The notes under the pieces: model-generated
The model's input: the letters and a program-made list of their open reading frames with translations, nothing else
Told to the model about the DNA's origin: nothing
Database searches by the model: none
Shown: piece by piece, positions 37,877 through 45,436 of the stretch
Position numbering within the stretch: the first letter of the stretch is position 1
Layout of the letters: every line of letters begins with the position of its first letter
Translations under genes and position numbers: made by a program
Source: Marispirochaeta sp.
GTDB taxonomy: Bacteria > Spirochaetota > Spirochaetia > JC444 > Marispirochaetaceae
Length of the DNA: 64,000 bases
Assembly: GCA_963676835.2 (NCBI GenBank)
Contig: CAXXFF010000003.1
Span: 544,001-608,000, forward strand
Direction: 5' to 3'

Positions 37877-40006
37877 ATGGCAGAAAAAAGCGGGCAGAAA
37901 ACAAAAGCCAGAATGGCATTCTCCACGAGGATCATTCTCTTTGTAATACTACTCCTTACACTTTCAACTTCAATCACCGGGTTGACCGGTTACTTTATCG
38001 CCAAAAATGCCCTTAACCGGAAAGGAGAACAGATACTAAGAAACTCTGTACGCCAGGCAATCGATCTTATTGAATCTTCCTTCCAATTATCCCAGGCGAA
38101 AATCATCACTGAAGCAGATGCGCAGGAGATGGTCAAAGTTGCTCTCATGGGTCCTCGCAATCCCGAGACCGGGGAACGGACACTGCTGCACAGCATTGAT
38201 CTGGGGGAAAATGGTTATTTTATCATCTACGACTCCAGAGGCACTGAAATTCTGCATCCAACCCTGGAAGGAGAGAATGTCTGGGATGTAACCAGCCTTG
38301 ATGATGAGAAGCACTACATTGTCAGGGAACAAATCAGCAGAGGCATATACGGCGGCGGGTTCATGTCATATTCCTGGTGGCTGCCGAAAACCGATACCCA
38401 GGCAGAAAAAATATCCTACAGCGAATACTTTTCCGAATGGGACTGGATAGTGGTTGCCACTGCATACGCGATCGACTTTAACAAACCTGCTCAAACGATC
38501 CTGCTTGCCGTAGGATCATCATTCATGGCTCTTGTGGTTCTTTTTTCGATTCTGATTATTCAATATGTTGAACGGGCATCTATTCCCATCCGACGGGTAG
38601 CCGTAGGTATGGAAGAGGTAATAAATAACCAGTTTAGCCTCATAGAGAATCCACATACCGGAGATGATGTTGACAAACTCATTGACGGTTACAATCACAT
38701 GATAAAATCCCTTAGACAGGCGGGTGATGACCTTGATGAGAAAAACCGCTATATAACCTACCTTGCCTACCATGATGATCTTACAGGATTGCATAACCGC
38801 TATGGCATGGAAAGCTTTGTGAGCGGCAGAATCAAGTCCGGCTGTAGTGAAGCATACCTGATACAGGCGGATATAATCGGACTGAAGGTTATTAACTCTA
38901 CCCTTGGCTTTGAACAGGGCGACCGGCTTATCAAAACTGTTGCATCCTTCCTGAAGCAGACAGAAACAGCCAGTAAACATTTTGCCAGAACCAGTAGTAA
39001 TGAATTCACCTTCTGGTATGAACCGGAACGGGGAGAAGACGTAACCTCTTTTATCAATGACCTCAGATTATCAATGAAGGAATACATTGTCCGCTACGGC
39101 TTTGGTCAGCTTATAGACATGCATGTATCCATGGTCCAGTTTCCAAGACACGGAAGCAGCTTCAATGAGCTGTACGAAAAAACCATTATGGCAATGAAGC
39201 ACGCCAAGGACAATAAAAGCCTGACGGTAAGCATTTATCACGAAGATTTACGTGCAAGTCTTGAAAATGAAGTATTTATGCGCACCCATCTTCAGTCGGC
39301 TCTGCAAAACGGCGAGATCACCGCCTGGTACCAGAAACAGGTGGATTATACCAGCGGAGAGGTCGTTGGAATTGAAGCGCTGGCCCGGTGGCGCTCAAAA
39401 GAGCTGGGAAATGTTCCCCCCTCGGTTTTTATACCTGCCATTAATCAGCTGAACCTTGTAAACGAGTTTACTGAGTATATGATCAATCATATTCTCGAAA
39501 ACTACCCCAGACTTATCGAAAAGTATAATAAAGATATTACCGTTTCCATAAATATTTCCCCGGCCTATTTTATGGATCAGAACTTCCTTGCCAATCTGCA
39601 GAGCACCTTTACCAAAAACCCGATACCACCGGAAAAACTGACCCTCGAAATTACGGAAGATATTTTTATTACCAATTTTGAAAGTATCAGCGAAACAATA
39701 GAGCAGCTGCATAAAATCGGGGCACGCATTTCTATCGATGATTTCGGCACCGGTTATTCGTCATTGAATTACCTGACAAGGATGAACTTTGACGAAATGA
39801 AGATAGACAAGAGCTTTATTTCGAGAATTCTTGATGATGAAAAATCATTTCAGCTGTTTGAAATCCTCTGCAATATTGCGGAAATATACGGCTACGATAT
39901 GGTGGCGGAAGGGGTAGAAACAGAGGAACAGCTGGAAAAAATAAAGGAAACCCCGCTGAAAATTATCCAGGGATACCTCTTTTCAAAGCCGGAACCCCTG
40001 GAATAA
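37877..40006 (+). CDS. Cache-HAMP-degenerate GGDEF-EAL c-di-GMP phosphodiesterase
   Basis: Cache motifs (GYF..YD, HP, WDWIV); GGDEF replaced by SSNEF; IEALARW, LEITE, DDFGTGYSS, AEGVET. Confidence 0.9.
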   Translation: MAEKSGQKTKARMAFSTRIILFVILLLTLSTSITGLTGYFIAKNALNRKGEQILRNSVRQAIDLIESSFQLSQAKIITEADAQEMVKVALMGPRNPETGERTLLHSIDLGENGYFIIYDSRGTEILHPTLEGENVWDVTSLDDEKHYIVREQISRGIYGGGFMSYSWWLPKTDTQAEKISYSEYFSEWDWIVVATAYAIDFNKPAQTILLAVGSSFMALVVLFSILIIQYVERASIPIRRVAVGMEEVINNQFSLIENPHTGDDVDKLIDGYNHMIKSLRQAGDDLDEKNRYITYLAYHDDLTGLHNRYGMESFVSGRIKSGCSEAYLIQADIIGLKVINSTLGFEQGDRLIKTVASFLKQTETASKHFARTSSNEFTFWYEPERGEDVTSFINDLRLSMKEYIVRYGFGQLIDMHVSMVQFPRHGSSFNELYEKTIMAMKHAKDNKSLTVSIYHEDLRASLENEVFMRTHLQSALQNGEITAWYQKQVDYTSGEVVGIEALARWRSKELGNVPPSVFIPAINQLNLVNEFTEYMINHILENYPRLIEKYNKDITVSINISPAYFMDQNFLANLQSTFTKNPIPPEKLTLEITEDIFITNFESISETIEQLHKIGARISIDDFGTGYSSLNYLTRMNFDEMKIDKSFISRILDDEKSFQLFEILCNIAEIYGYDMVAEGVETEEQLEKIKETPLKIIQGYLFSKPEPLE

Positions 40007-40051: not shown

Positions 40052-40618
40052 TCAAGCCTTAACAGTCTCACCAGTCAGGGCAAGAAGGGGCGCATGGTTA
40101 TGCACCCGGTCTTTAACAACCAGGGTGGTAACATCGCTCTCTATCTGCCGGTTAAAGAGAATATCGTGACCCAGACACAAACCCATGGTTACAGTGAGCT
40201 CAACACCGGCAGCATTGAGCTGGGCCGCCTGCCCAAGGGGATTGCAGGAAACCCCGGGGAGATCACTCTTGGCGTTTACTGCATTCTGCGCAAGGGCTCC
40301 CACGGTACAGGAAACAGCTTCAATTTTAGCCCCGGACTCTTTCAGTCTCGCAACAGCAAGGGCAGCCTCTTTTTCCATACCATAGCAGTAGGCAAGGCCT
40401 ACCTTTTTAAGTTTCTGGTCATGAATGTATTCAACCAGTTCCTGAACCCGGTCAAGGGTACCCGCGCGGCCGCCGTCAACAAGACGGGCGGCGCTTTCCA
40501 CCAGGGGAGCAGTGCTCTCATGCCGGTAGTCCGTTACCAGCCCTTCTCTGTCGAATTTTTCGGCGCCGCAGCTTTCTGTGCTGCGGCACGATTTGGCGCC
40601 GCAAAGGGTACAGTTCAT
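40052..40618 (-). CDS. DUF1847 metal-binding protein
   Basis: N-terminal CxxC...C...C; GLAYC.G, SCTVG, CNP.GQA, GLCLGHD.LF, LVVKDRV..H.PL. Confidence 0.88.
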   Translation of the reverse strand: MNCTLCGAKSCRSTESCGAEKFDREGLVTDYRHESTAPLVESAARLVDGGRAGTLDRVQELVEYIHDQKLKKVGLAYCYGMEKEAALAVARLKESGAKIEAVSCTVGALAQNAVNAKSDLPGVSCNPLGQAAQLNAAGVELTVTMGLCLGHDILFNRQIESDVTTLVVKDRVHNHAPLLALTGETVKA

Positions 40619-40630
40619 CCGTCTTCCCGC

Positions 40631-41914
40631 CTATTCCATCTCTTTGGTTACGGCGATTGCAGCAATAGTTCCGTCTGCAACGGCCGTTGTAATCTGGCGG
40701 TAGCGTTTTGACTTGACATCTCCGGCGGCAAATACACCGGGAATGTTGGTCCGCATCTCTTCGTCGGTTTCCAGATATCCCCACTGATCCAGGGTGAGTT
40801 TGTCGTTGAACATCTCGATGTTGGGAATAAATCCTACGAAAACAAAGATACCGTTGGACCGCACCTCTTTGGTTTCTTTTGTTTTCAGGTCTTCAACTAC
40901 AACGCCCATATCCATGGTTCCGTATTTCTTGAACTCCCGGGGCTCATGCTCAAAGAGAATCTCGATTTTAGGGTCGGCAAAGGCCTTATCCTGAGCCTCT
41001 TTGTTTGCCTGAAGATGGTCGAACTGATGCACGATGGTGATCTTTTTGGCAAACTTGCTGATAAAAAGACTCTCTTCAATGGCACTGTTTCCGCCGCCGA
41101 TAACAACAACTTCCTTATCTTCGAAGTATTTTGCGTCACAGGTTGCACAGTAGGAGATACCGTTTCCGGCATACTCTTTTTCTCCGGAGACTCCAAGAGG
41201 ACGGGGCCGGCTGCCGGTGGCAATAACAATTTTATGGGCCTTGATGGTCTCATAGCCGTCTATCTTTACACACTTGCAGTCAAGGTCAACATAATCGATC
41301 TCTACAGCAGAGCGGAAGTCAACGCCGTTCTCCTTGGCCTGCTCGCTCATGTAGTGAGAAAGCATAAATCCCTGCTGTGGCTGAATGAAACCGGGATAGT
41401 TGGAGACCTGATGGGTGGTGGATACGTATCCTCCGGGCAGAGCAACGTCGACCAGGATGGTCTTCAGATGCGCCTGAGCCAGATAGACTCCTGCAGTTAA
41501 TCCTGCAGGACCGCCGCCGAGAACAAGAACGTCCGCTTCTGTTGTCTTCTCTTCAATTTTACCGTGAATCTCTGCAACCTTTGCTTCGGGAAGCATGGCA
41601 TCCAGATTCTTTACAATCTCCGAGCGTTTAATGCCTCCGGAGAGCTTATCGCCAACCATCTCACCGTCTTTATAAAAAAGCACTGTGGGAGACCCGGTTA
41701 CATCAAGCTCCTGAGCGAGCTCACGGTTTTCCTGTCTGAATATTTTGAAGAAGGCGATATCGTCACCATACAATTCACTTAATGGCTCGTATTTTGCAGC
41801 CAGGGCCTCACAGGGAGGACACTCTGTAGAATAGAAATCCAGAACTGCCAGCGGTTTGCTGAGCACTTCGCTTTTAAACTGATCCTGATTAATTTCCTTG
41901 ATTTTTCCTGCCAT
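40631..41914 (-). CDS. Thioredoxin-thioredoxin reductase fusion protein
   Basis: N-terminal Trx fold with CPPC; GGGPAG, IATG, SYCATCD, GGGNSA, FAAGD, QITTAV.DG. Confidence 0.92.
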   Translation of the reverse strand: MAGKIKEINQDQFKSEVLSKPLAVLDFYSTECPPCEALAAKYEPLSELYGDDIAFFKIFRQENRELAQELDVTGSPTVLFYKDGEMVGDKLSGGIKRSEIVKNLDAMLPEAKVAEIHGKIEEKTTEADVLVLGGGPAGLTAGVYLAQAHLKTILVDVALPGGYVSTTHQVSNYPGFIQPQQGFMLSHYMSEQAKENGVDFRSAVEIDYVDLDCKCVKIDGYETIKAHKIVIATGSRPRPLGVSGEKEYAGNGISYCATCDAKYFEDKEVVVIGGGNSAIEESLFISKFAKKITIVHQFDHLQANKEAQDKAFADPKIEILFEHEPREFKKYGTMDMGVVVEDLKTKETKEVRSNGIFVFVGFIPNIEMFNDKLTLDQWGYLETDEEMRTNIPGVFAAGDVKSKRYRQITTAVADGTIAAIAVTKEME

Positions 41915-41916
41915 CT

Positions 41917-43269
41917 TTACTCTCCTTGGCTTTTAGCAGCCTGGTTAACCTGCTGAAAATGTTCGAAATGATGAAAATAGAGGGGAATCCCCATACCTAA
42001 TAACTTATCCACCGGTCTGCAGTCCGGATGAAGGACTGTGCCGCTGGCGTTCTTTGCAACCGATGCACATCCGCCGCCGCATGCAAGCTGAAGAGAACAG
42101 TCGGCACACTGGGGAATGGAAGTTACATCCCGCTCTTCCCACTCCTCTACGGCGTCTTCGTTCATGCTCATTTCGGGATAGAATGTTCCCAGTACTTCCC
42201 CGTCTTTTCCTACGGTGGCAGTACAGGAATATACCTTGCCCGTATAATCCAGGGCCCATTCAGTTTTTGTTCCCGGGCATGAATCAAACAGGGGTTCCGG
42301 CATTTCTCCGTGTTCAAAGAGAAACTTTGAAATTGAGTAGGCCGGACGGTGAAACTCAAGAAAATCCGGGTTTTCCAGGATCATCTCATACAGATCCTCA
42401 TACATGCTTATCCTCGAATAGAGCTTTTTCTGATCTGCCTGGCAGCTGTGCAGTTCGTAGTTTCTGCCCAGCTGGGTTTTAAACAGCCGGTTGCCCGTCC
42501 AGCCCCGGTCTATGGCAAAGCGGGCCAGCTCGGGAAGGCCTGAAAGATTCTCTTTATCAATAACCGCTCTAAGGTTTATCCCGATACCCGCCGCAAGGGC
42601 TGCATCTATGCCCTTTACAATCTGATCAAAGGTTCTGCCGCCGCCATGGAGAAACCTGCGCCGATTGTGCAGATCCCCTACTCCGTCCAGGGTCACCTGA
42701 ACTTCACGGATGCGGTAACTTTTCAGCAGCGGAACATAGTTTTCCAGTTCGTAGCCGTTGGTTACAATTGCCGTATCAAGACCGCGATCTTTCGCGCCTT
42801 CAAGGAGCTCTTCAATCATGGTCCGTGAACGCTGATTCGGCATAAGAGGCTCGCCGCCGAAGATGGTTATATACTTCTGTTTTCCCGCAAGACGGCTGTC
42901 TATCCAGCTGAAAAAAGCGGAAACAATCTCTGCAGGCTTTTCGTCCTTTGAGTGTTCGTAACTTTCCTGATAACAGTAGGAACAGGCGAAGTTACAGGCA
43001 TAACTGGGAACAAAGAAAACCTGAACTTCGTCATTATCGCGGTTTTCAATAAACTCAAGATAGGACTCCCGGTATCTGCGGGTCTCTTCAGCCTCATCGA
43101 TGATATAGCCTTTTTCGATAAACTCTGCCCTGTCTTCAAGAGTACCGTTCATATACTCCTCTGCCATTTCTGCGGGAAGAATATCCGCCTGTTGTGAGAG
43201 AGGGTTGACCAGAATGTATTCGTCCTGGCCTTTCAGTTTACTTAGAATATTGTATTTAGAATTCCTCAT
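41917..43269 (-). CDS. Radical SAM/SPASM domain peptide maturase
   Basis: CNFACSYC (CxxxCxxC), FGGEPL, TNG, QVTLDG; SPASM C-x17-C...CxxC-x5-C-x3-C...C; about 80-aa N-terminal extension. Confidence 0.93.
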   Translation of the reverse strand: MRNSKYNILSKLKGQDEYILVNPLSQQADILPAEMAEEYMNGTLEDRAEFIEKGYIIDEAEETRRYRESYLEFIENRDNDEVQVFFVPSYACNFACSYCYQESYEHSKDEKPAEIVSAFFSWIDSRLAGKQKYITIFGGEPLMPNQRSRTMIEELLEGAKDRGLDTAIVTNGYELENYVPLLKSYRIREVQVTLDGVGDLHNRRRFLHGGGRTFDQIVKGIDAALAAGIGINLRAVIDKENLSGLPELARFAIDRGWTGNRLFKTQLGRNYELHSCQADQKKLYSRISMYEDLYEMILENPDFLEFHRPAYSISKFLFEHGEMPEPLFDSCPGTKTEWALDYTGKVYSCTATVGKDGEVLGTFYPEMSMNEDAVEEWEERDVTSIPQCADCSLQLACGGGCASVAKNASGTVLHPDCRPVDKLLGMGIPLYFHHFEHFQQVNQAAKSQGE

Positions 43270-43293
43270 AGTTCCTGTCCGTGTAAAATAAAT

Positions 43294-43321
43294 CCCGAAG
43301 AGACCCGAAGGTCTCTTCGGG
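43294..43321 (-). terminator. Perfect 12-bp stem with UUCG tetraloop between peptide gene and rSAM gene
   Basis: Minus strand CCCGAAGAGACC-TTCG-GGTCTCTTCGGG followed by ATTTATTTT. Confidence 0.85.
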
Positions 43322-43332
43322 AACGCTGGCTC

Positions 43333-43440
43333 CTAATCGTGGCAGCCGGCGACAACTTTGGAGGTCTTGGCGCAGCACTGTGCTACAGCCTGACCGGAAG
43401 AAGGATTCTTCTTCACAAGGGAAAGCATCTTTTTCTTCAT
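43333..43440 (-). CDS. Putative RiPP precursor peptide, 35 aa: MKKKMLSLVKKNPSSGQAVAQCCAKTSKVVAGCHD
   Basis: Manual translation; AAGGAG RBS 6 nt upstream of ATG; TAG stop; lies directly upstream of the rSAM/SPASM gene; Lys-rich N-terminus and Cys-rich C-terminus; below the ORF-track length cutoff. Confidence 0.85.
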   Translation of the reverse strand: MKKKMLSLVKKNPSSGQAVAQCCAKTSKVVAGCHD

Positions 43441-43464
43441 GCCCTGCTCCTTAAATTTATCGTA

Positions 43465-44160
43465 TCAGCCGTTCTTTCCAGGCTTGTAAGCCTGAATCGT
43501 CCAGCTGGATACTTCTATTTCGCCCTTGGGGTAAGGTTCACTTTCCTCAAGGATAGTTACATCGGTAAAACCTGCATTGGTCAAATGCTGAGTGTATTCA
43601 TCCCGGGTAACAGAACCTGCCCAGCATTCTGCCACTGCCTCCGGATCATTTTTGTATTTTTCAGGCACCGGAGCGGTTGAATAGATATCGCTCACCACAA
43701 AACGGCCGCCGGGTTTGAGAATCCGGGCAATCTCAAGCCATACCTGCTGCTTGTCATCAGCATGGTTGATGGTACAGTTGCTGATAACCAGATCAACTGA
43801 TTCATTTTCGAGCTTGATTTCTTCCAGGTTGGTTTTAATTACCCGGCCGTTTGAAACACCGAACTTCTCAAGATTCTTTGTGGCCTTTTTTATCATACCA
43901 TCGGAAATATCCACACCGATAACTTCACCGGCCGGCCCGACGGACTCCGCAAGTCTTATAAGATCATGACCCCTGCCGGAGCCGAGGTCTACACAAACCT
44001 CTCCGGCTGCAGGATCTGCATGGTTTATAGCACCGCCGCAGGAAAGACAGCAGGAGGTTTCTGCAAGTTCACTGTATCGAACGTTGATGGCAGCCGTCTG
44101 ATGGACAGACCCACTGGTTCCTGATTTTTCCACTACATTCTCCCTTGTTGTAATCGCCAT
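43465..44160 (-). CDS. arsM: Arsenite S-adenosylmethionine methyltransferase-like protein
   Basis: SCCLSCGG, VDLGSGRG.D, VGP.G.VIGVD, VISNCTIN, LKPGGRFVVSDI, ECWAG, L..AGF; Cys positions match those conserved in ArsM. Confidence 0.8.
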   Translation of the reverse strand: MAITTRENVVEKSGTSGSVHQTAAINVRYSELAETSCCLSCGGAINHADPAAGEVCVDLGSGRGHDLIRLAESVGPAGEVIGVDISDGMIKKATKNLEKFGVSNGRVIKTNLEEIKLENESVDLVISNCTINHADDKQQVWLEIARILKPGGRFVVSDIYSTAPVPEKYKNDPEAVAECWAGSVTRDEYTQHLTNAGFTDVTILEESEPYPKGEIEVSSWTIQAYKPGKNG

Positions 44161-44196
44161 ATTCCTTCTTCCTATTAGTTTAGTACTCTCTTACGC

Positions 44197-44646
44197 CTAT
44201 ACAAGACGCATAAGCAGATTAATTCCTTTTCTGACCATCTCAAGCTGATCTCCCTCAAGCTGATCGGTAAGCAGTTTTTCGCAGGCTTCTTTCTCACTCT
44301 CAAGTGCCGCCAGACACTCTTCCCCTTCGCTGCTTAAACGAAGCAGCTGGTTACGCCGGTCATGACTGTCTGACTGAACGGTGATAAAACCGCGGTTAAT
44401 CAGCTGATTGACCAGACGGCTGCCACGGGAAGGTGATACACCAATACCGGCGGCAAGGTCTTTTGAGTTCATTTCACTGGAGGAGAGAAAATAGAGACAG
44501 GAAACATCCCGGTTGGAAAGATTAAACCGGCTGCCGATACGTTCATCCAGATTGCATTTCTTTTTAAATGCGATGATCTGGTCGATTAGCCGGTCGTCCA
44601 TGGGATATTCAGTCTGGTTGCTTGCCGCAATAATTGCCATATGCAA
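44197..44646 (-). CDS. MarR family regulator with four cysteines
   Basis: SKDLA..IGVSPSRGSRLVNQL..RGFI...DRR...L.LS.EG; exact start uncertain (44646, 44640 or 44601). Confidence 0.88.
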   Translation of the reverse strand: MHMAIIAASNQTEYPMDDRLIDQIIAFKKKCNLDERIGSRFNLSNRDVSCLYFLSSSEMNSKDLAAGIGVSPSRGSRLVNQLINRGFITVQSDSHDRRNQLLRLSSEGEECLAALESEKEACEKLLTDQLEGDQLEMVRKGINLLMRLV

Positions 44647-44659
44647 CTATTTACTACTT

Positions 44660-44697
44660 TTATATATTTTTGTCAATATATATTTATCAATATATAA
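44660..44697. promoter_or_regulatory. Overlapping TATATATT...AATATATA inverted repeats covering the minus-strand -35 TTGACA upstream of marR
   Basis: Minus strand ttatatattgataaatatatattgacaaaaatatataa; AT-rich, so partly low complexity. Confidence 0.5.
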
Positions 44698-44796
44698 TAA
44701 TTTATTTAATCAGTCGGTAAAAATCCTGTAACGTTTTGCAGTAACACATTTATTTTGTTATTTTATAATAGTGTTAATGACCACAGGAGAACCGTT

Positions 44797-45027
44797 ATGA
44801 CAAAAAATATCACCCTGAAAATTGATGAAGATTTGTTGAAACTCTGCCGCTTTGAAGCCGTTGAAAACGATAAATCTCTTTCTCAATGGGTGGCAGATGT
44901 TCTCCTTGAGCATGTAAAGGGAATAGATGAGTATCTGTACGCCCGGGAACGGGCGAGAAAACGGCTGAATGAGGGGTTTTCCCTGGGAAACAACCCGCTG
45001 CTTCGGGATGCAGCCCATGAAGGTTAA
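44797..45027 (+). CDS. Ribbon-helix-helix antitoxin (CopG/DUF6364-like)
   Basis: MTKNITLKIDEDLL...A....SLSQ.V; AGGAG RBS; overlaps the PIN gene. Confidence 0.8.
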   Translation: MTKNITLKIDEDLLKLCRFEAVENDKSLSQWVADVLLEHVKGIDEYLYARERARKRLNEGFSLGNNPLLRDAAHEG

Positions 45028-45436
45028 ACAGATTTTTCTGGACACGAATATACTGCTCTATGCTTATGACAATGATGCCGGAGAAAAACACCGAATTGCT
45101 GCAAAGCTGATTCTATCGGCCTGGGACGGGGAATTTCTTCCGGTAATAAGTATTCAGGTATTACAGGAGTTTCTGGTAAATCTGTTGAAAAAGGGCGTTT
45201 CGGAAAATGATGCTTTCGCAGTAGTCGCTGATTATTATACCTGGAGAATAGTTGAAAATAATCTGAATCTTTTCCGCAAAGGTCTTGCTGTGATGAATGA
45301 GTATGGCTTATCCCTCTGGGACTCCATGATTGTTGCAGCAGCCCGGCAGGCCGGCACGGAAGAACTCTGGACAGAAGATTTAAACACAGGGCAGCTTTAC
45401 GGCTCAGTTAAAGCAGTAAATCCGCTGAAGGAATAA
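45017..45436 (+). CDS. vapC: PIN domain toxin (VapC-like)
   Basis: FLDTNILLYAYD, QVLQEF, WDSMI.AAA, WTEDL, NP; ATG at 45017. Confidence 0.88.
   Translation: MKVKQIFLDTNILLYAYDNDAGEKHRIAAKLILSAWDGEFLPVISIQVLQEFLVNLLKKGVSENDAFAVVADYYTWRIVENNLNLFRKGLAVMNEYGLSLWDSMIVAAARQAGTEELWTEDLNTGQLYGSVKAVNPLKE

Follow-up and report, generated by a model that had tools for sequence, protein, structure and literature searches.

What is made by an operon that encodes an ArsM-like methyltransferase, a very short cysteine peptide and a radical SAM enzyme side by side, and does arsenic have a part in it? The operon lies in a 64,000-nt stretch of DNA that was analysed as a whole (the window). The ORF listing confirmed six co-directional minus-strand genes separated by 36, 24, 63, 2 and 12 nt, exactly as initially annotated, with plus-strand genes bordering them on either side (Table 1). 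The family assignments held in Pfam and NCBIfam for the MarR regulator, the methyltransferase, the radical SAM enzyme, the thioredoxin-thioredoxin reductase (Trx::TrxR) fusion and the DUF1847 protein. It had been pointed out that every gene of the operon encodes cysteine, which is correct and became informative only once conservation was checked: in homologue alignments, the methyltransferase, the radical SAM enzyme, Trx::TrxR, the DUF1847 protein and the peptide all have cysteines that vary little or not at all. None of the six genes encodes a peptidase or exporter or is an arsR, acr3, arsB or arsC gene, in agreement with the gene content originally described.

Table 1 Features of the operon and its borders in the window
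Feature	Positions	Strand	Remarks
sCache-GGDEF-EAL gene	37877-40006	+	One border of the operon
DUF1847 protein	40052..40618	-	188 aa
Trx::TrxR fusion	40631..41914	-	Pfam domains
Radical SAM/SPASM peptide maturase	41917..43269	-	450 aa
13-bp G+C-rich hairpin, then TTTATTTT	43293..43322	-	Between peptide gene and radical SAM gene
Precursor peptide	43333..43440	-	35 aa
16-residue invariant core AQCCAKTSKVVAGCHD	43336..43383	-	Stop codon directly after
ArsM-like SAM methyltransferase	43465..44160	-	231 aa
MarR-family regulator	44197..44646	-	149 aa from TTG start
AT-rich region 5' of marR	44660..44697		Two adjacent ATATATTGAYAAA copies and overlapping palindromes (inverted-repeat search)
Small ORF and PIN-domain gene	44755-45436	+	Other border of the operon

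Comparison with other genomes reduced the operon to a core of four genes, encoding the ArsM-like methyltransferase, a peptide of 31-35 aa, the radical SAM/SPASM enzyme and the Trx::TrxR fusion, which was found again at every one of the 80 genome loci retrieved, distributed over Spirochaetota, Bacteroidota, Ignavibacteriota, Myxococcota and Latescibacterota. Gene order is kept among these homologues: the methyltransferase gene lies 5' of the peptide gene on the same strand at 77 loci, and Trx::TrxR reached at least 300 bits at 75, four of the five misses being contig ends. A scan of metagenomes with the peptide pattern located the cassette in at least 120 stretches, and where contigs reached far enough the peptide was flanked by the methyltransferase (50 of 58), the radical SAM enzyme (37 of 44) and Trx::TrxR (27 of 33). 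The carriers of the gene set are anaerobic bacteria of several phyla. Pairwise distances of the methyltransferase, radical SAM enzyme and TrxR correlate (rho 0.50-0.56, 58 loci), which is weak support for co-inheritance because the sequences themselves share common descent. A MarR homologue, by contrast with the core, occurs at only 19 of the 80 loci, mostly in spirochaetes (tblastn), and DUF1847 at 28, of which 24 are within the operon; both are lineage-specific accessory additions, and the core role first assigned to DUF1847 found no support. Database and literature searches returned neither a Pfam or NCBIfam family model nor a paper describing the cassette, including the similar arrangement that the initial annotation mentioned as proposed in other bacteria. 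The cassette is an undescribed, cross-phylum gene set, of which the locus in the window is one copy.

In source records the peptide is annotated solely as 'hypothetical protein', and it matched no Pfam or NCBIfam family. An AAGGAG sequence lies 7 nt 5' of its first ATG, and a second ATG at 43428 gives an alternative length of 31 aa. The peptide has a leader rich in Lys and, at its C-terminus, a core, AQCCAKxSxxxxGCHD followed by the stop codon, that is present at 80 of 80 genome loci, with 11 of its 16 residues identical throughout. Since this core is kept through 76 distinct DNA versions, with every synonymous codon in use, the peptide is far beyond chance; it was rightly called a real gene, and the constraint at the protein level is strong. 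The consensus of 74 distinct peptides (alignment A2) is MKSLIKKKxxxxKxVAQCCAKxSKxVAGCHD, and in 22 of 80 metagenome peptides the leader contains a further CC or CxC. Downstream of the peptide gene, the hairpin listed in Table 1 was scored as a terminator-like site and folds at -27.1 kcal/mol (z -4.53), with none of 200 shuffles equally stable. Hairpins of -12 kcal/mol or stronger, unrelated in sequence, occupy the same place at 63 of 80 loci, the shuffle control applying to the window hairpin only. The window hairpin is a candidate attenuator or transcript stabiliser.

A radical SAM/SPASM enzyme with a short cysteine peptide and a hairpin past the precursor is a common RiPP layout, and the Atlas match to a CLI_3235-type bacteriocin cluster (0.80, rank 18) is a weak lead in the same direction. 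We nevertheless regard an ordinary secreted antimicrobial RiPP (sactipeptide or ranthipeptide), tailored by the methyltransferase, as very improbable: the cores of antibiotic RiPPs differ among strains, whereas this one does not change across five phyla; the 80 loci share no recurrent protease, exporter or immunity gene; and the dedicated Trx::TrxR and ArsM-like enzyme would be left unaccounted for.

The radical SAM enzyme contains the Pfam domains Radical_SAM and Fer4_12, and its best NCBIfam matches are SPASM peptide maturases, all below cut-off (CefB, 141 bits, cut-off 600; TIGR04463, 127, cut-off 525; PapB, 108, cut-off 340). The CX3CX2C motif and eight further cysteines, namely the seven of the SPASM motif and one more, were invariant in 77 sequences. 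The closest solved relative, both by sequence profile (E 7e-19) and by full-length fold (TM 0.61-0.65 over 431-449 columns), is CteB (5wgg/5why), and residues 1-58 of the AF2 model form three strands plus helices, a predicted RRE-like N-terminus. CteB and other thioether synthases that bind a leader share this architecture, and the original view of a peptide-modifying SPASM enzyme is supported by these matches and the model. The eight invariant auxiliary-cluster cysteines presumably represent the anSME pattern with full ligation and not the open site of CteB, so a thioether formed via thiolate coordination is not assured.

Among known systems, SCIFF (CteA/ScfA with CteB/ScfB) likewise combines a short cysteine peptide of conserved sequence and C-terminal core with a radical SAM/SPASM enzyme bearing an N-terminal leader-binding domain, lacks exporter and protease, and has a housekeeping-like distribution. 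However, the cassette enzyme scores 74 bits against a cut-off of 425 in the SCIFF maturase model, the peptides are unrelated (that of the cassette has three cysteines and a different invariant core), the methyltransferase and Trx::TrxR are additional, and the cassette extends over several phyla whereas SCIFF is found in Clostridia. The top-scoring curated families, CefB 'Cys-every-fifth' (NF038107) and TIGR04463, match residues 1-433 and 18-402, respectively, at scores far under their cut-offs; their precursor pattern is unmatched by the cassette peptide, and to our knowledge the families themselves are uncharacterised. Mycofactocin (MftA/MftC) and PQQ (PqqA/PqqE), also with a small, strongly conserved precursor, a radical SAM/SPASM enzyme and an intracellular product, provide an analogy only: the MftC model gives 66 bits (cut-off 265), and peptide motif and partner enzymes are unlike those of the cassette.

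The methyltransferase belongs to Pfam Methyltransf_31, and its best NCBIfam match is NF008823 'arsenite methyltransferase' (185 bits, cut-off 263), a profile of which it lacks some 57 positions at the N-terminus and some 35 at the C-terminus. Its closest solved structures are ArsM/AS3MT (E about 1e-21), which outrank other methyltransferases by at least eight orders of magnitude in the structural-database search. It shares the SAM fold of CmArsM (PDB 4fr0/4fs8), and Cys41, Cys129 and Cys179 align with Cys72, Cys174 and Cys224 of the CmArsM chain; within its motifs CCLSCGGA, SNCTINH and ECWAG, Cys37, 38, 41, 129 and 179 are conserved at 95-100% in 66 sequences. In the next relatives outside the cassette (40-45% identity) the motifs are GCGNP, SNCVIN and GCxAG, and of 13 such proteins sampled, 12 exceed the curated ArsM cut-off. 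Descent from ArsM with retention of the As(III)-binding cysteines, as initially proposed, is therefore upheld by the cysteine alignment and the scores of these relatives. The cassette enzyme, whose activity is predicted, differs from ArsM in size (231 aa against about 270-400), in having SCGGA for GCGNP, in the replacement of the Cys44 region by a CC pair that precedes the Cys72 equivalent by three residues, and in the lack of ars operon context at the 80 loci. A C-terminal tail with at least two cysteines is present in 53 of 65 homologues, and is absent from the enzyme in the window.

The same enzyme could instead act in classical RiPP tailoring with no metalloid, a reading that we consider possible but rather doubtful. 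Here the radical SAM enzyme would cross-link the peptide and the methyltransferase would methylate a peptide residue directly (for example on the sulfur of Cys, a nitrogen of His or the carboxylate of the C-terminal Asp), giving a redox-active peptide or cofactor; the cysteines of the methyltransferase would be structural or Zn-binding, activating a peptide thiol, and Trx::TrxR would merely keep peptide and enzymes reduced. The position of the peptide between the two enzymes at 77 of 80 loci, the truncated, sub-cut-off methyltransferase, the absence of nearby ars genes at the 80 loci, the general thiol-redox genes next to the Bacteroidota cassettes and a distant structural-database match to the peptide carboxyl methyltransferase LahSB (6uak, E 1.9e-5) all speak for it. 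Yet conservation across phyla is 95-100% for the cysteines with which ArsM holds As(III), and Cys-rich tails are frequent, two features that an ordinary O-, N- or S-methyltransferase would not need, and the lead of the ArsM structures in the search also counts against it.

In the Trx::TrxR fusion a thioredoxin with a CPPC motif (Pfam Thioredoxin, 5-105) precedes a thioredoxin reductase with a CATC motif (Pyr_redox_2, 128-415; TIGR01292, 313 bits, cut-off 343), and both CxxC pairs are conserved at 99-100% in 72 sequences. A dedicated thioredoxin system is consistent, as initially suggested, with the published ArsM cycle, which involves four cysteines, a disulfide cascade and thioredoxin as reductant (PMC6138428).

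Of the two accessory proteins, the DUF1847 protein (Pfam 9e-30) has two sets of four cysteines conserved at 92-100%, and its AF2 model (pLDDT 90.5) has a flavodoxin/Rossmann-like core at 70-180, for which the structure search gave no specific structural relative. The regulator (MarR_2, 1.4e-9) has an alternative ATG 6 nt downstream of its TTG, at 44640; Cys31 is invariant and Cys122 93% conserved in 14 sequences. The AT-rich region 5' of marR, with a minus-strand promoter-like site at 44721-44694, is a candidate MarR operator and promoter; apart from the genome itself, the relative L001 (91% identical) was the one place where the ATATATTGAYAAA pair was seen again.

In the initial annotation, the operon is under the control of a MarR that senses As(III), methylarsenic from ArsM is bound by the peptide cysteines, and the radical SAM enzyme forms a C-As or C-S bond, yielding an arsenic-containing peptide. 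The ArsM ancestry with its retained cysteines and the thioredoxin system that the ArsM cycle requires (PMC6138428) favour this model. The radical SAM gene next to an ArsM-type gene is a further point of likeness, to arsinothricin (ArsL/ArsM) and arsenosugar (ArsS/ArsM) synthesis. Such pairs of radical SAM enzyme and ArsM occur in both pathways, and the vicinal CC and one distant Cys of the peptide resemble the site at which ArsD binds As(III) (Cys12/13/18). Overall, however, we judge the model improbable. Nothing connects MarR, found at 19 of 80 loci, with arsenic, and ars genes do not recur around the 80 loci (clusters common to at least two loci); nor does a sel or other element-specific gene recur beside the cassette. 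The methyltransferase falls below the curated ArsM cut-off and scores 118 against 500 and 86 against 400 in the arsinothricin and arsenosugar ArsM models. ArsL and ArsS use SAM-derived groups as substrate and need no peptide, whereas the cassette enzyme has a precursor peptide and is closer to peptide maturases (NCBIfam). Finally, the Bacteroidota neighbours include an SQR-like oxidoreductase, rhodanese, DUF302 and TauE, suggesting sulfur or selenium, besides Trx, OsmC, AhpC/Redoxin and Grx. Operon, gene order, peptide, maturase type and ArsM descent found support, and the arsenic link, the As(III)-sensing MarR and the core role of DUF1847 did not; a connection of the cassette with arsenic is still plausible, C-As bond formation pure conjecture. 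For the methylated atom, the ancestry of the enzyme is compatible with arsenic or antimony, and the Bacteroidota neighbour genes with sulfur or selenium.

The reading that we tentatively prefer, at somewhat less than even chance, is that the cassette produces a modified cysteine (thiol) peptide and employs it inside the cell, its partner being a thiol-dependent methyltransferase; what we infer is the kind of cross-link, the acceptor of the methyl group and the sequence of the steps. First, the RRE-like domain of the radical SAM enzyme would bind the Lys-rich leader, and the enzyme would then cross-link the core, most likely through a thioether that joins the sulfur of one of the three cysteines to carbon. 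The leftover peptide thiols, together with the cysteine cluster of the methyltransferase and its frequent Cys-rich tail, could hold a soft atom, which would be methylated in a SAM-dependent step. Trx::TrxR with NAD(P)H would reduce the disulfides arising from each turnover, as proposed for ArsM. Because the cassette has no protease or exporter, the peptide product probably stays in the cell and serves as a carrier or cofactor.

Six closely spaced open reading frames run in the same direction on the minus strand, as the initial annotation had described, with intergenic gaps of 36, 24, 63, 2 and 12 nt, and the gene labels proposed there agree with the Pfam and NCBIfam assignments. Plus-strand genes lie on either side of this block. 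One of them, a sCache-GGDEF-EAL gene (37877-40006, plus strand), converges on the DUF1847 gene, the two stop codons being 45 nt apart with no terminator predicted. At the other end, divergent from marR, a 90-aa ORF that matches no Pfam family runs into the 5' end of a PIN-domain gene (44755-45436, plus strand); the two are probably a VapBC-type toxin-antitoxin pair.

Genes of the minus-strand block in the Marispirochaeta sp. window
Feature	Coordinates	Strand	Source
MarR	44197-44646	minus	ORF listing
Methyltransferase, 231 aa	43465-44160	minus	ORF listing
Peptide, 35 aa	43333-43440	minus	ORF listing
Radical SAM enzyme (rSAM), 450 aa	41917-43269	minus	ORF listing
Thioredoxin/thioredoxin-reductase fusion (Trx::TrxR), 427 aa	40631-41914	minus	ORF listing
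DUF1847 protein, 188 aa	40052-40618	minus	ORF listing

When a single genome was scanned for each species, at least 567 relatives of the rSAM enzyme were confirmed, and 80 loci were kept, ranging over Spirochaetota, Bacteroidota, Ignavibacteriota, Myxococcota, Latescibacterota and others. The initial annotation had drawn all six genes into a single pathway. In the neighbourhoods of these 80 genome loci the methyltransferase, the peptide and Trx::TrxR recur beside rSAM in nearly every case. MarR (19/80 loci) and DUF1847 (28/80, within the operon in 24 of the 28) are much less frequent, and both were rejected as members of the conserved core on these counts. In 77 loci the methyltransferase is encoded upstream and in the same direction, the three misses being at contig ends, and the peptide was found in all 80, between 12 and 250 nt upstream of rSAM. 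Trx::TrxR reaches at least 300 bits in 75/80 loci, with four of the five misses at contig ends; no copy lies within 6 kb at L055, one of the genome loci. Methyltransferase, peptide, rSAM and Trx::TrxR are one unit, to which this private disulfide reductase belongs.

The back-translated peptide core matched at least 120 stretches of metagenome contigs. Where the contig reaches, the partners in 80 metagenome loci were the methyltransferase (50/58), rSAM (37/44) and Trx::TrxR (27/33), and the misses were concentrated in a high-GC variant group (metagenome loci L104, L118, L132, L134, L140, L143, L146, L155 and L166). The peptide of this variant carries an additional CC pair within its leader (...ACCAPEKAAQCCAKASRLVSGCHD) and is followed directly by Trx/TrxR, while rSAM is located elsewhere or on the opposite strand (opposite in L166) and a SQR-like FAD oxidoreductase is encoded nearby. 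An additional leader CC or CxC was seen in 22/80 metagenome loci versus 1/80 genome loci. Within the phylum of the source organism, rSAM was detected in 37 of the 401 Spirochaetota genomes sampled and in 21 of 153 genera; the cassette is thus accessory and patchily distributed. Many Bacteroidota and Ignavibacteriota carry it too, as do other anaerobes; to judge by their record titles, they come from anoxic habitats.

The peptide is under extreme constraint. Its C-terminal 16 residues read AQCCAKxSxxxxGCHD-stop across the genome loci, and 11 of these 16 positions are identical in 80/80 loci despite 76 distinct DNA versions in which every synonymous codon is represented. Since the core residues are invariant while synonymous codons are used freely, purifying selection acts on the peptide at the protein level. 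A chance ORF was rejected as an explanation, given this protein-level constraint and a homologue in every locus. In the window the gene has two in-frame ATG starts (43428-43440), the second four codons downstream of the first; AAGGAG stands 7 nt upstream of the first ATG, and the second would give a 31-aa peptide agreeing with the consensus start of its relatives, MKSLIKKK. A MKKK/MKKG prefix ahead of the consensus MKSL start is frequent in spirochaete copies. At the genome locus L079 (5814-5909) the start of the core is duplicated (AAQCCATAQCCAK...), producing a second CC pair. On the 3' side of the window's peptide gene, a 13-bp G+C-rich hairpin followed by a T-run has a predicted stability of -27.1 kcal/mol (z -4.53, with 0/200 shuffles equally stable); hairpins of -12 kcal/mol or lower, unrelated in sequence, occupy this position in 63/80 loci, the shuffle control applying to the window locus. 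Neither a Pfam family nor an NCBIfam equivalog covers the peptide, its database label is 'hypothetical protein' only, and Protein Atlas returned unnamed clusters only (0.87-0.88), which probably are the peptide's own family.

The rSAM enzyme possesses an invariant CX3CX2C motif (C92/C96/C99), an invariant seven-Cys SPASM motif (C331-x12-G-x4-C349, C388xxC391x5C397xxxC401, C417) and an invariant eighth auxiliary cysteine, C276 (77 sequences). Each of its best-scoring curated NCBIfam families is a peptide-maturase family, and every score was far below cut-off: CefB (141 bits, cut-off 600), TIGR04463 (127, 525), PapB (108, 340) and the SCIFF maturase (74, 425), so that it is a member of none of these four. 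No Pfam family or NCBIfam equivalog is specific to the cassette enzyme, and its relatives, numbering in the thousands, are labelled just 'radical SAM protein' or 'uncharacterized protein'. Going by record names, Marispirochaeta aestuarii has an rSAM that is 73% identical. The best solved relative by sequence profile is the thioether synthase CteB (E 7e-19), which Foldseek also matched over the full length (431-449 columns, TM 0.61-0.65), followed by SuiB, anSME, SkfB, TigE and ChlB. In the AF2 model (mean pLDDT 75), residues 1-58 form three strands and then helices (pLDDT 78-92) and appear RRE-like; the alignments to CteB and SuiB take in this N-terminus as part of a full-length comparison rather than as a domain on its own. 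The enzyme appears to be of the leader-binding peptide-maturase type. Selenocysteine variants were considered and rejected, because the two matches with flagged in-frame stops represent read-through beyond the normal stop codon.

The best solved relatives of the methyltransferase are the ArsM/AS3MT structures (E about 1e-21), with the next family eight orders of magnitude weaker. Its Cys41, Cys129 and Cys179 correspond in the alignment to chain positions 72, 174 and 224 of 4fr0, the CmArsM structure, and are 100% conserved in 66 cassette methyltransferases. Conservation across the group Cys37, Cys38, Cys41, Cys129 and Cys179 is 95-100%, and that of Cys56 is 97%. As(III)-binding roles are assigned to CmArsM Cys72, Cys174 and Cys224 in the review PMC6138428, according to which ArsM enzymes bind As(III) through four conserved cysteines, after which these become disulfides that thioredoxin reduces. 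In contrast to ArsM Cys44, located about 28 residues before Cys72, the CC pair Cys37/38 of the cassette enzyme sits 3-4 residues ahead of the Cys72 equivalent, in an N-terminal region that is unaligned. A Cys-rich tail (at least two Cys; CxC, CC or CCCC) ends 53 of 65 cassette methyltransferases, for example those of the genome loci L024, L025, L050 and L063; the window's own copy has none.

Against the arsenite methyltransferase model NF008823 the window protein scored 185 bits (cut-off 263) over profile positions 58-235 of 272, leaving out approximately the first 57 and the last 35. P0241, a cassette-type representative from a library of 1.8 billion proteins, scored 205 bits. Among the best 150 representatives from this library, the cassette type is recognizable by CCLSCGGA, SNCTIN and ECWAG, and the next relatives, at 40-45% identity, have the canonical GCGNP, SNCVIN and GCxAG. 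The curated cut-off was exceeded by 12 of 13 sampled next relatives and by 0 of 5 sampled short or cassette-type forms; judged from its sequence, the window enzyme is not an ArsM member by this test. The cysteine alignment, the relatives and the missing profile ends together indicate a shortened ArsM derivative which retains the ArsM thiol site. Four further library proteins of 478-640 aa (P0242, P0247, P0249, P0258) each contain two ArsM-like stretches and, on that basis, look like methyltransferases in tandem or fused form. In the main rival to the reading preferred below, the peptide itself is methylated directly and a metalloid is not involved; we regard this as rather unlikely, while giving it real weight. 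Complex prediction for methyltransferase and peptide lent no support to an interaction (score 0.03, mark 0.32), a result that counts neither for nor against one.

In Trx::TrxR, the CPPC of the Trx module and the CATC of the TrxR module are both 99-100% conserved; Pyr_redox_2 matched at 7e-55, and TIGR01292 at 313 bits, slightly below its cut-off of 343. Of the accessory proteins, DUF1847 (PF08901, 103.7 bits, Pfam gathering threshold 25) has conserved cysteines in two sets of four and an AF2 model (pLDDT 90.5) with a flavodoxin-like core. Foldseek gave no match to it at E 0.001 or better and a specific structural relative was not found; a VIA wide search (best Z 9.0) returned generic periplasmic-binding-protein lobes and CheY-like and cobalamin-binding-domain-like alpha/beta folds, and these matches do not point to a function. 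The family is unmentioned in the literature searched. MarR has one invariant cysteine, and an AT-rich palindromic motif occurs twice upstream of its gene (ATATATTGAYAAA repeats), shared only with a 91%-identical relative.

The initial annotation had gone further and proposed that an As(III)-sensing MarR, ArsM, the peptide and rSAM yield an arsenic-containing RiPP. An association with ars resistance genes is usual, not obligatory, for ArsM. The 894 ORFs of the 80 loci were clustered and 74 representatives (14 + 60) annotated for clusters common to at least two loci, seven clusters being core genes or antisense artefacts and 355 singleton ORFs being left out; none of the 74 belonged to the ArsR, ArsB, Acr3, ArsC, ArsA or ArsD families. 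Cassette neighbours in Bacteroidota include thioredoxins (17 loci), DUF302 (19), DUF6132 (17), a ferredoxin-type membrane protein (10), OsmC (9), rhodanese, TauE, Grx and AhpC/Redoxin, together with a SQR-like FAD oxidoreductase (11 loci) that matches type III sulfide:quinone reductase weakly (92 versus 525 bits). These neighbours point to thiol, sulfur or selenium chemistry over arsenic specifically. Apart from the cassette methyltransferase, the source genome (4.43 Mb, 97% complete) gave no strong ArsM-like match; Acr3 gave nothing above cut-off and ArsB was not found. The only arsenic-type pair found there is a thioredoxin-type ArsC-like gene (contig C4, 384483-384875; 154 bits, cut-off 174) immediately upstream of the gene for a MIP-family channel, on another contig and unlinked to the cassette. 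The specific arsenic model is very unlikely in our estimate. The genome, at 97% completeness, yielded no gamma-glutamylcysteine ligase (PF04262), and GSH-S_ATP matches were unspecific, the control also matching in Bacillus subtilis; glutathione may therefore be absent.

The reading that we tentatively prefer, although we stop short of calling it probable, is as follows. rSAM would cross-link the peptide core, most likely through a thioether by analogy, and the leftover peptide thiols would, with the Cys cluster of the methyltransferase, hold a soft atom. This thiol-held atom would then be methylated, Trx::TrxR would reset the disulfides, and the product would be retained inside the cell. A bolder possibility, which we consider quite improbable, is a ribosomal peptide bearing a covalently or thiol-bound methylated metalloid: an 'arsenopeptide', or an As/Sb/Se carrier replacing glutathione in glutathione-free anaerobes. 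Here rSAM might shape the peptide or even form a carbon-metalloid bond, the shortened ArsM would methylate the atom between peptide and enzyme thiols, and Trx::TrxR would again act on the disulfides.

A description of the cassette was not found in the literature searched, including the combinations arsM/SPASM, RiPP with arsenite, and ranthipeptide with thioredoxin reductase; few subscription journals were covered, and an earlier description is possible. One plausible candidate, PMC13188914, was set aside, as it lists selenoprotein families only. The 'AQCCAK' motif, DUF1847 with radical SAM, and arsenite methyltransferase with precursor peptide likewise retrieved nothing relevant in that literature. 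It is rare for the core of a peptide precursor to stay nearly invariant from phylum to phylum, and the examples PQQ, mycofactocin and SCIFF proved, or are suspected, to be cofactor-like molecules. To our knowledge, such a peptide, an arsenic-methyltransferase descendant and a dedicated disulfide reductase driven by NAD(P)H are combined in no described system. Should As, Sb, Se or reactive sulfur accept the methyl group, the cassette would contribute, so far unrecognised, to the methylation of metalloids or chalcogens in sediment and groundwater, with relevance for environmental arsM gene surveys; its short methyltransferase form carries the label 'arsenite methyltransferase' in some sources. 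Should the peptide itself be methylated, the cassette would define a new class of RiPP whose cellular role is conserved. A methylated-metalloid peptide, if true, would be the first RiPP of organometalloid type, and metalloids in anoxic sediments would be methylated by a route that is new.
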